A stretch of 64,000 nt of DNA, taken from positions 3,384,419 to 3,448,418 of the forward strand of contig OZ220472.1 of NCBI GenBank assembly GCA_965115995.1, given 5' to 3'. Source of the DNA: Acidimicrobiales bacterium (GTDB lineage Bacteria; Actinomycetota; Acidimicrobiia; Acidimicrobiales; Poriferisodalaceae). The notes under the pieces are model-generated. The model was given only the letters and a program-made list of their open reading frames with translations, searched no databases and was not told the DNA's origin. Made by a program: the position numbers and the translations under genes. Below are positions 578-1,727 of the stretch, piece by piece. Position 1 is the stretch's first letter. Every line of letters starts with the position of its first letter.

Positions 578-1129
578 GTGTCCGAAGCTGTTCGAGTCCG
601 TGCTTACGATTGGATGCGTGAACAGGCCGATGCCCCGGTCGCGGAGTACGTCATGTCGCGGCTGAGTCCCGTGCCGGCGGCCGATCTCGCTACCAAGGCC
701 GATTTGGCGCGTGTCGAAGCCAAGCTCGACGCCTTCATCGTGCATGTGGACAAGAGGTTCGACCTGCTTGTCGGGCTGCGCGAGGCCGATCTCAGAGAAC
801 GTGCGGCCGAACGAGAAGCCGATCTCGCAAAACGTGCGGCCGAGCGCGAAGCCGACCGCAGAGAGCGTGCGGCTGACCGCGAGGCCGATCTTGCAGAGCG
901 TGCGGCTGACCGCGAGGCCGATCTTGCAGGACGTGCGGCTGAACGAGAAGCCGATCTCGCAAAACGTGCGGCCGAGCGCGAAGCCGACCGCAGAGAGCGT
1001 GCGGCTGAGCGCGAAGCCGACCGCAAGGAGTCCGGGCGCCGAGCCTGGAATATCGCCCTCGCGTTGCCCGTGGAGGTCGTCGTGCTGTTCGCGGGCGCCG
1101 CAGCGATCTTGGAGTGGCTCCGCGGTTGA
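578..1129 (+). CDS. Small tail-anchored coiled-coil protein built from 11-residue repeats (tentatively DUF1640-like N-terminal LATKADLARVEAKL motif)
   Basis: Track ORF 431..1129. I place the start at GTG 578 because GGGAGG (567-572) sits 5 nt upstream and 431-577 covers the AT-rich promoter-like stretch. 183 aa: VSEAVRVRAYDWMREQ..DLATKADLARVEAKLDAFIVHVDKRFDLLVGL-(READLxxRAAE x ~7.5)-SGRRAWNIALALPVEVVVLFAGAAAILEWLRG, ending in a C-terminal TM helix. Alternative starts are GTG 431 and ATG 614. Confidence 0.7.
   Translation: MSEAVRVRAYDWMREQADAPVAEYVMSRLSPVPAADLATKADLARVEAKLDAFIVHVDKRFDLLVGLREADLRERAAEREADLAKRAAEREADRRERAADREADLAERAADREADLAGRAAEREADLAKRAAEREADRRERAAEREADRKESGRRAWNIALALPVEVVVLFAGAAAILEWLRG
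779..1030 (+). repeat. In-frame 33-bp tandem repeat (~7.6 units) with a 132-bp (4-unit) higher-order repeat
   Basis: Units encode READLRERAAE / READLAKRAAE / READRRERAAD / READLAERAAD / READLAGRAAE / READLAKRAAE / READRRERAAE / READRKE. The 68-nt string gaacgagaagccgatctcgcaaaacgtgcggccgagcgcgaagccgaccgcagagagcgtgcggctga occurs identically at 809-876 and 941-1008 (offset 132 = 4 x 33). Confidence 0.9.
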
Positions 1130-1270
1130 GCTAACTGGCCGGTTCTGAGCAGTCCCGGTCGATGGTGTGGAAGCGGATCCAGCGGTCGGCTGCCCCTGGA
1201 GCGCTGGTTGAAGGTGGGCATCAGTACAGAGCGCCCACATGAACGTCCGTTGAGTCGCAAAATGAGTGTC

Positions 1271-1297
1271 TTGACACCTGTGCGCGGTCAGTAACCT
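1271..1297 (+). promoter_or_regulatory. Weak candidate promoter for the giant gene (perfect -35 hexamer only)
   Basis: TTGACA at 1271-1276. The nearest -10-like hexamers are TAACCT (1292-1297, 15-nt spacer) and TACGCT (1297-1302, 20-nt spacer), so neither has optimal spacing. Listed only as a place to look for a TSS. Confidence 0.2.
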
Positions 1298-1355
1298 ACG
1301 CTCTATATGCCAGCCCGCGAAAGCCGCCCGAGCCCCGGCCATGACCGCCTGAATC

Positions 1356-1369
1356 GGGGGGGGGGGGGG
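1356..1369 (+). repeat. G14 homopolymer tract in the 5' leader/promoter region of the giant gene
   Basis: gaatc-GGGGGGGGGGGGGG-ttcacagcc, counted directly (5 G at 1356-1360 plus 9 G at 1361-1369). It lies 215 nt upstream of ATG 1584. Confidence 0.95.
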
Positions 1370-1583
1370 TTCACAGCCTGCTCGTCTGGGTGCCTTCGGC
1401 GCCTGCGGCGTCGAGTGGCGAATGCGACGGCGGTTTGGCTGGTCGGTCGTGGTTGCGCCCCGGCGCTGGCCGGCTCTGCTGGGAATGGCTGAATCCCGCC
1501 CGCAGGGCTCGCGAGGCTGTCTGCTACCCGCGCGTCCGGGGGCCGTTCAGCCCCGCATGCGTCGCGGTTAGCGGTACTGCCGA

Positions 1584-1727
1584 ATGATGGTCGTGACCTC
1601 TGACGCAACACGAACGGGACGCCTGAGGCGGTTCGGCTCGGCGTCGCTGGCGGTGCTGCTGGTGGCGTCGGTGCTGACGGTGGTGCCGCTTGGGCCACTG
1701 GGCGGTCAGCTGCCGGAGGCGGGGGCG
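1584..1727 (+). other. Sec-type signal peptide of the giant protein (predicted cleavage after AGA, residue 48)
   Basis: MMVVTSDATRTGRLRRFGSASLAVLLVASVLTVVPLGPLGGQLPEAGA|QTAAG. It has a basic n-region (RTGRLRR), a hydrophobic h-region and a small-residue A-x-A-like site. The cleavage position is a guess. Confidence 0.55.

Follow-up and report, generated by a model that had tools for sequence, protein, structure and literature searches.

Organization of the giant-gene locus

The window analyzed here is a stretch of 64,000 nt (C1:3384419-3448418) from a single-contig genome of 3.77 Mb with a G+C content of 66.6% and an estimated completeness of 94%. The nearest named relatives are MAGs labelled Acidimicrobiia bacterium, Candidatus Poriferisodalis sp. 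and Candidatus Spongiisociaceae bacterium, and the host is an uncultivated actinobacterial lineage of sponge symbionts. The following features were located, all on the forward strand and numbered from the first position of the window:

578-1129 (+): upstream gene, encoding a 183-aa repeat protein with a hydrophobic C-terminal tail
1130-1583 (+): leader of 454 nt between the upstream gene and the giant ORF
1271-1276 (TTGACA), 1292-1297 (TAACCT) and 1297-1302 (TACGCT) (+): possible promoter just 5' of the ATG at 1307, read by eye
1307-1492 (+): candidate upstream ORF, whose ATG 1307 lies 49 nt before the tract and whose frame is open through the tract
1341-1352 (+): mini-ORF ATG ACC GCC TGA, ending 3 nt before the tract
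1346-1379 (+): tract with its flanks, conserved in the closest species as CGCCTGAA ... G14 ... TCRCAGCCT
1356-1369, genome C1:3385774-3385787 (+, sense strand of the giant gene): G14 homopolymer, with G15 and G17 alleles in other data
1390-1587 (+): frame +2 after the tract, with GTG 1390 as first in-frame start and a TGA that overlaps the main start
1482-1524 (+): leader blocks GGAATGGCTGA and GGGCTCGCGARGCTGTCTGC, conserved in the closest species
1569-1571 (+): TAG in the frame of the giant ORF (+1), which has no other stop codon between the tract and ATG 1584
1584-64000 (+): giant ORF with start codon ATG 1584, running past the window end

The window holds 20,805 aa of the giant ORF, which in the genome extends to 23,856 aa (71.6 kb) without an internal stop codon and is among the largest bacterial genes. 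Its product begins with a signal-peptide-like N-terminus (MMVVTSDATRTGRLRRFGSASLAVLLVASVLTVVPLG...EAGAQTA) that ends at EAGA/QTA. A Pfam search of the first 2000 aa returned no match; the later parts contain Calx-beta repeats together with weak cadherin and fn3 matches. The giant-gene product is predicted to be a secreted, adhesin-like surface protein. In a near-identical second strain (L060/L061 on a 3.58-Mb contig of the ENA assembly ERZ24894576) the gene is called with 20,775 aa in comparison to 23,856 aa, and its length, like that of the leader tract, is thus polymorphic between strains.

The upstream gene ends at position 1129, 226 nt before the tract, and neither this gene nor its minus-strand neighbour has a Pfam match. 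Its product is a tail-anchored protein with a 33-nt repeat array (779-1030) that spans about 250 nt in the window and at least 470 nt in the closest species (genome G021, locus L002), a difference that is ordinary tandem-repeat length variation. The minus-strand ORF at 479-1342, which starts 13 nt from the tract, was rejected as a gene; it shadows the repeat gene on the opposite strand, encodes no signal peptide and lacks conservation.

Direct reading of the window bore out the 14 consecutive G reported by the first-pass annotation at 1356-1369, as well as its leader of 454 nt and a spacing of about 215 nt between the tract and the giant gene; with the upstream gene ending at 1129 and ATG 1584 as the start codon, the gap amounts to 214 nt. 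The distance of 59 nt that had been given between the TTGACA hexamer (1271-1276) and the tract had to be corrected to 79 nt. An Rfam scan of positions 1-2500 with E-values up to 1 revealed no family match in the leader, and its predicted RNA fold was no more stable than that of shuffled sequence (z +0.38). A GC3 test for coding potential found none of the three leader frames to be coding-like (0.69-0.77 vs 0.88 in the giant gene). The scan of positions 1-2000 for sigma-70 consensus elements and terminators found no promoter pair, and a single terminator-like site located far from the tract. The spacers of 15 or 20 nt between TTGACA and the two TANNNT hexamers are non-optimal, the promoter scan made no call for them, and TTGACA is not conserved in the closest species.

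Length alleles of the tract

Logan contigs from the runs of three studies cover the tract locus. Two samples (runs X2 and X3) contain G14 at a word depth exceeding 1000, and run X1 contains G15 at a depth of 69 and is otherwise identical over 801 nt; the contigs of run X6 (depth 2), which break exactly at the tract, are uninformative. An exact-protein look-up with the upstream gene retrieved the same locus on the 3.58-Mb contig of the independent ENA assembly ERZ24894576. A comparison of this locus (L060) with positions 1-2396 of the window revealed zero substitutions, and the sole difference is G17 instead of G14. For a third assembly, a leader length that fits G14 can be deduced only from the spacing of the called genes. 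Exact-protein look-ups with two upstream genes returned only the same two contigs, and the search of JGI metagenome contigs for both flanks separated by a gap of 9-22 nt yielded four chance matches, in which the tract locus is absent. Length variation was also observed within the genome, where C12 vs C13 is the only difference between two paralogous 5' regions over 1013 nt.

The tract is real, and it occurs with lengths of 14, 15 and 17 in otherwise identical DNA. The first-pass annotation had named an invariant length and an assembly error as outcomes that would speak against a slipped-strand switch; instead, three length alleles were found, and the tract is present in independent assemblies, in independent runs and in the MAGs of related organisms. 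Its caution about the exact length was justified, given that the data are long-read metagenome assemblies and k-mer contigs in which homopolymer length may err by one. The difference between 14 and 17 is harder to dismiss, because 3 nt exceed the usual consensus error. The occurrence of length alleles with zero substitutions in 0.8-2.4 kb, together with the C12/C13 paralogues, indicates that the tracts mutate far faster than base substitutions accrue.

Conservation of the tract in related genomes

Homologues of the giant gene are present in four other MAGs of sponge Acidimicrobiia, with a protein identity of 67-86% in the best-matching segment. All four carry an uninterrupted tract ahead of the gene on its sense strand (G14, G14, G14 and G13), at distances of about 190, 303, 31 and 18 nt from the start codon. 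The genes upstream of the giant gene differ among the related genomes. Synteny of the upstream gene is confined to the closest species among the related loci, which shows that the tract accompanies the giant gene rather than its upstream neighbour. When the five leaders were aligned, matches were confined to short blocks shared with the closest species. Two of them, GGAATGGCTGA and GGGCTCGCGARGCTGTCTGC, are located about 110 nt 3' of the tract both here and in the closest species. That a stretch of 14 identical bases has stayed uninterrupted in leaders diverged beyond alignment is indicative of selection on the tract; judging from this comparison of leaders, the tract is kept by selection. For three other tract-linked genes, the search for orthologues in the closest species (G021) identified distant paralogues at most.

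Homopolymeric tracts in the genome and the genus

A base-composition model predicts about 0.3 G14 runs in 3.77 Mb (our own arithmetic), by which a G14 is not very rare, and the run-length distribution of the genome itself is therefore the better test. The counts of G/C runs fall steeply from 4094 (length 5) via 676 (length 6) and 73 (length 7) to 5 (length 8), and a second mode of 19 runs follows at 9-14 nt, so that the distribution is bimodal. The longest G/C run inside the 71.6-kb coding sequence of the giant gene has a length of 7. A signal-peptide-like ORF of at least 350 aa begins within 420 nt downstream of 15 of the 19 runs of 9-14 nt; the same criterion applies to 6.6% of 4000 random positions and to 6 of 78 runs of 7-8 nt. 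The enrichment of tracts at the 5' ends of secreted-protein genes is accordingly pronounced (binomial P ~5e-15), and a sixteenth tract (C1:1966777) fits this linkage by eye. The products of the linked genes are large secreted proteins (about 370 to 23,856 aa) with SWM, RCC1, Calx-beta and fn3, or LRR and Ig-like domains, or with none known; one of them is an NMT1-type lipoprotein. On the sense strand of the linked genes, G tracts (5) are outnumbered by C tracts (11). Most of these sibling tracts occupy the first codons or an open N-terminal extension, where their length toggles the reading frame.

Three tracts are not located at a 5' end. Two of them (C1:1612730 and C1:3726431) have no obvious linked gene, and the other (C1:133258-133266, L039) is an in-frame G9 (GGG) in the middle of the gene for a 1414-aa Calx-beta/LysM-like protein.

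Each of the 32 genomes of the genus contains G/C runs of 11 nt or more (maximum 18 nt), and in a second species they are again located at the 5' ends of secreted-protein genes. The distribution at the level of the order is patchy (a run of at least 12 nt in 32 of 81 genomes), and tracts of at least 12 nt are missing from the single genome sampled for the family's other genus. Exceptional G runs of about 50 nt in two other genomes of the order (G069:C6:42352-42401 and G070:C3:86107-86158) may be sequencing artefacts caused by poly-G reads that inflate the order-level counts.

Mismatch repair, selection and the reality of the tracts

Domain searches of the single-contig genome, whose estimated completeness is 94%, detected neither MutS domain V (MutS_V) nor the MutL domain DNA_mis_repair, and a genome search revealed the presence of NucS. 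Actinobacteria as a group rely on NucS instead of MutSL repair, and the NucS pathway leaves short indels uncorrected (PMC8228993). With MutS and MutL not found and NucS blind to indels, slippage on long runs would go unrepaired.

Two explanations would deprive the tract of any function. If indels are not repaired, G/C runs could grow by mutation pressure and persist wherever they are harmless, as a neutral by-product without a role. The lack of detectable MutS/MutL and the patchy occurrence of tracts in 32 of the 81 genomes of the order agree with this explanation, but we regard it as very unlikely: mutation pressure does not account for the strong depletion of runs of 6-8 nt next to the enrichment of those of 9-14 nt, for the concentration of tracts at one gene class, or for the survival of an uninterrupted tract in leaders that have diverged beyond alignment, and the genome sampled from the family's other genus is devoid of tracts of at least 12 nt. 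Even harder to believe is that the run or its length differences merely reflect homopolymer errors or poly-G read artefacts. Long homopolymers are indeed error-prone, contig breaks in the shallow run X6 (depth 2) coincide with the tract, and the G runs of about 50 nt in some genomes of the order are possibly of this kind. However, the tract is internal with unique sequence on both sides, it was recovered in contigs of three studies, two further assemblies and four other MAGs, its G14 version was reproduced in two samples at a depth above 1000, and a difference of 3 nt between the 14- and 17-nt alleles is larger than the usual consensus error.

Possible mode of action

Stop codons occur between the tract and the start of the giant gene in all three frames (TGA 1490-1492, TAG 1569-1571 and TGA 1585-1587, the last one at ATG 1584 itself). 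The tract can therefore not cause a frameshift of the giant ORF and must act through the leader. A location inside the controlled ORF, the hallmark of intragenic frameshift switches, applies only to the hypothetical upstream ORF and to the sibling loci. Given the alleles, the conservation and the genome-wide set of tracts, the G14 run is most likely an expression switch: it probably represents a contingency tract whose slippage-driven length sets the amount of the giant protein via the leader. Replication slippage on the homopolymer would frequently add or remove G, a process favoured by the lack of MutS and MutL, and selection would keep the tract long and pure because its length sets the output of protein from the 71.6-kb gene. 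The slipped-strand switch proposed in the first-pass annotation thus holds with respect to a slippage-prone and selectively maintained tract, supported by the same three lines of evidence, whereas the promoter geometry that it offered was not supported. Three points are inferred: the tract belongs to the transcript, ribosomes translate the upstream ORF, and expression depends on the length of the tract.

The candidate upstream ORF provides a tentative route. Translation from ATG 1307 would proceed through the tract, and the tract length modulo 3 would set the position at which the ribosome stops. The ORF ends at TGA 1490-1492 if the tract is G14 or G17, which leaves 91 nt to the main ATG; G13 or G16 would move its end to TAG 1569-1571, at a distance of 12 nt, and G12 or G15 to TGA 1585-1587, which overlaps the main ATG (ATGATG). 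Both complete assemblies (G14 and G17) thus share the same phase of the upstream ORF. The stop position would alter termination-reinitiation at the main ATG, which is not preceded by a Shine-Dalgarno sequence (no GGAGG-like element was found in the 12 nt before ATG 1584), and it would also change the extent of untranslated leader that is exposed to premature termination. In the closest species, an ATG in a similar context (atATGc) precedes the tract and its frame reads through it. A TANNNT hexamer is located 9 nt before ATG 1307, and TAGATT is found 10 nt before the corresponding ATG of the closest species. The frame +2 that follows the tract holds a block (EWL....RAREAVC) common to the closest species. 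Against the upstream-ORF route stand the GC3 values of the leader frames, which are not coding-like, the absence of a Shine-Dalgarno sequence at ATG 1307, and the situation in the closest species, in which the upstream ORF stays at least 29 nt away from the main ATG in any phase of the tract. The ATGA overlap is weak evidence, because it arises whenever codon 2 begins with A. For the same reason, the ATGA and TGATG stop-start overlaps at the G-sense loci were given less weight as proof of coupling; they follow from any second codon that starts with A. On balance, the upstream-ORF route is possible and slightly preferred over an effect on the promoter or the 5'-UTR.

This alternative holds that tract length changes the geometry of the promoter or the 5'-UTR, as in the tpr genes of T. 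pallidum or in C. acnes, and for the giant gene it is only slightly less probable than the upstream-ORF route. Against it stand the absence of sigma-70-like hexamers on either side of the tract, the distance of 79 nt to a TTGACA that is not conserved, and the sibling tracts 4-18 nt before a start codon, which must be part of the transcript there. A different objection concerns the rate of change. If the tract rarely mutates, the fixed length of each strain would define a fixed expression level, as proposed for most tracts of C. acnes. The presence of 13-14 G at all five species-level loci resembles a constrained length more than free switching, a single consensus length was obtained per assembly or run, and C. 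acnes provides a precedent (PMC4746626). Such slow tuning is nevertheless unlikely in the light of the three alleles with zero substitutions in 0.8-2.4 kb and of the paralogues that are identical except for the tract, and one consensus length per sample says little, since contigs hide minority variants. It is less probable still that the G-rich sequence acts as such, be it as a G-quadruplex or R-loop on the non-template strand, as a ribosome standby or Shine-Dalgarno-like site, or as a protein-binding site, all of which are possible forms of an element with a fixed function whose length changes are tolerated noise. The location of G on the sense strand at five of five giant-gene loci with near-constant length, and the two sibling loci with a G10-11 run in Shine-Dalgarno position 4 nt before the ATG, are in line with a fixed element. 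A strand-specific role of the RNA is, however, at odds with the occurrence of both G (5) and C (11) on the sense strand of the linked genes; many sibling tracts are part of 5' codons and can matter there only through the reading frame, and the leader has neither a fold more stable than shuffled sequence nor an Rfam match.

The contingency tract thus remains our preferred reading, and its most elaborate form is speculative: a three-position translational gearbox, in which the upstream ORF would start at the 5' end of the mRNA or close to it and ribosomes would be released either 91 or 12 nt before the start codon of the giant gene or directly on it, resulting in low, medium or high output. The giant gene might then be one locus of a genus-wide phasome that randomly varies the eukaryote-like surface proteins of a mutualist.

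Comparison with known homopolymeric switches

The closest described actinobacterial case, and also the one studied best, is Cutibacterium (Propionibacterium) acnes. Its genome contains 54 G/C homopolymeric tracts, two thirds of which lie upstream of the 5' ends of genes; 96% of its HPTs are G/C runs, and HPTs were noted at genes for putative surface proteins (PMC4746626). The tract lengths of C. acnes follow its clades, and the authors read the variation as slow and clade-bound (PMC4746626), in contrast to the three alleles in substitution-free DNA reported here. Both organisms are Actinobacteria with G/C runs 5' of genes, MutS and MutL were not found in the present genome, and the 'intergenic (promoter/UTR)' and 'intragenic (frameshift)' categories both occur in it. 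In contrast to C. acnes, however, the present host is an uncultivated sponge symbiont of the Acidimicrobiia, its tracts are longer (9-14 nt, and up to 18 nt in the genus), and almost all of them occur at genes for large secreted repeat proteins.

In Treponema pallidum, poly-G runs are located in the mapped promoters of tprE/G/J, tprL and tp0126, and short lengths (8 or fewer) permit transcription (PMC7864442). The giant-gene locus shares with the tpr genes a variable G run upstream of a gene for a putative surface protein, outside the coding frame and with several such runs per genome, but its tract is not flanked by promoter hexamers, lies 214 nt from the start codon and has a length of 14-17. 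Homopolymer switches in promoters are also known from porA and opc of N. meningitidis and from the fim genes of Bordetella. Intragenic frameshift switches comprise opa and pgtA of Neisseria, the Campylobacter phasome and the pilin G-tract of Bifidobacterium breve. The present tracts resemble them in slipped-strand mispairing, in the large number of loci, in the focus on surface proteins and, at most sibling loci, in the location in leader-peptide codons. The tract of the giant gene differs in that it lies outside the controlled ORF, and the logic of frame would here need an upstream ORF.

Translational coupling, or the control of downstream genes by upstream ORFs, in Actinobacteria rich in leaderless transcripts is known from mycobacteria. 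The giant-gene locus is similar in having a possible near-leaderless short ORF ahead of a gene without a Shine-Dalgarno sequence and, in one frame, a stop codon that overlaps the main ATG. Our literature search, which was not aimed at coupling, retrieved no case in which coupling is set by a hypermutable tract inside an upstream ORF, and we put this forward as a hypothesis. A full-text search found no paper on homopolymer phase variation in sponge symbionts and none naming Poriferisodalis.

The probable switch described here belongs to a known kind, and the lineage that carries it is new. The giant-gene locus contributes a non-frameshifting tract located in the leader, the largest linked gene and three alleles in identical flanks. 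Phase variation is a textbook subject for pathogens that evade immunity; the same device is found here across a whole genus of uncultivated and presumably mutualistic sponge symbionts, attached to proteins with Calx-beta, cadherin, fn3, LRR and RCC1 repeats that have a presumed role in contact with the host. Should the tracts switch, every symbiont population would be a mixture of surface types, which would bear on the escape of symbionts from feeding by sponge cells and from killing by phages, and also on limiting the cost of a protein of 23,856 aa. For long-read MAGs it follows that gene calls and 'pseudogenes' adjoining such tracts are not to be trusted outright.

Variants of the tract architecture

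Several sibling loci exhibit arrangements of their own. Three paralogous secreted-protein genes (L025, L026 and L038; C1:442684-442695, C1:452544-452555 and C1:3027679-3027691) carry a C tract in codons 5-8 that is preceded by a strong GGAGGA Shine-Dalgarno sequence and an ATG. These genes would be in frame with C11 or C14, and the assembly contains C12, C12 and C13, so that all three read OFF; two of them are identical over 1013 nt apart from the tract. At two further loci, a G10 (C1:2514404-2514413) and a G11 (C1:1673803-1673813) are located 4 nt before the ATG of a gene for an NMT1-family lipoprotein and of a gene for a 4402-aa secreted protein, respectively, and in this Shine-Dalgarno position the poly-G itself may serve as a ribosome-binding site.

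Short ORFs immediately ahead of the tract are a recurrent element. Three homologous loci (C1:2615890-2615926, C1:510763-510800 and L042:610-645) contain a Cys-containing mini-ORF (MACGERCRLL* and variants) whose TGA directly precedes a C tract. Similar short ORFs (MSGRV*, MSARV* and MTA*) terminate immediately ahead of the G tracts at the giant gene and at two large paralogues, and the sibling loci read ATGTCGG.TCGCGTCTGA at the place that corresponds to the mini-ORF at 1341-1352 of the window.

Two long tandem C (or G) tracts about 40 nt apart are located upstream of a homologous secreted-protein gene in the genomes G019, G020 and G006 (L003:1369-1433, 13+12; L004:1359-1423, 12+14; L005:1656-1721, 17+12), and each of them is followed by a repeated unit, gggcgg.gctggtgtga. 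This arrangement suggests a two-dial version of the device. The flanks of the tracts have a motif in common, since CTGTGA-C(n) and C(n)-GATTCAG recur at several of them in either orientation relative to the genes.
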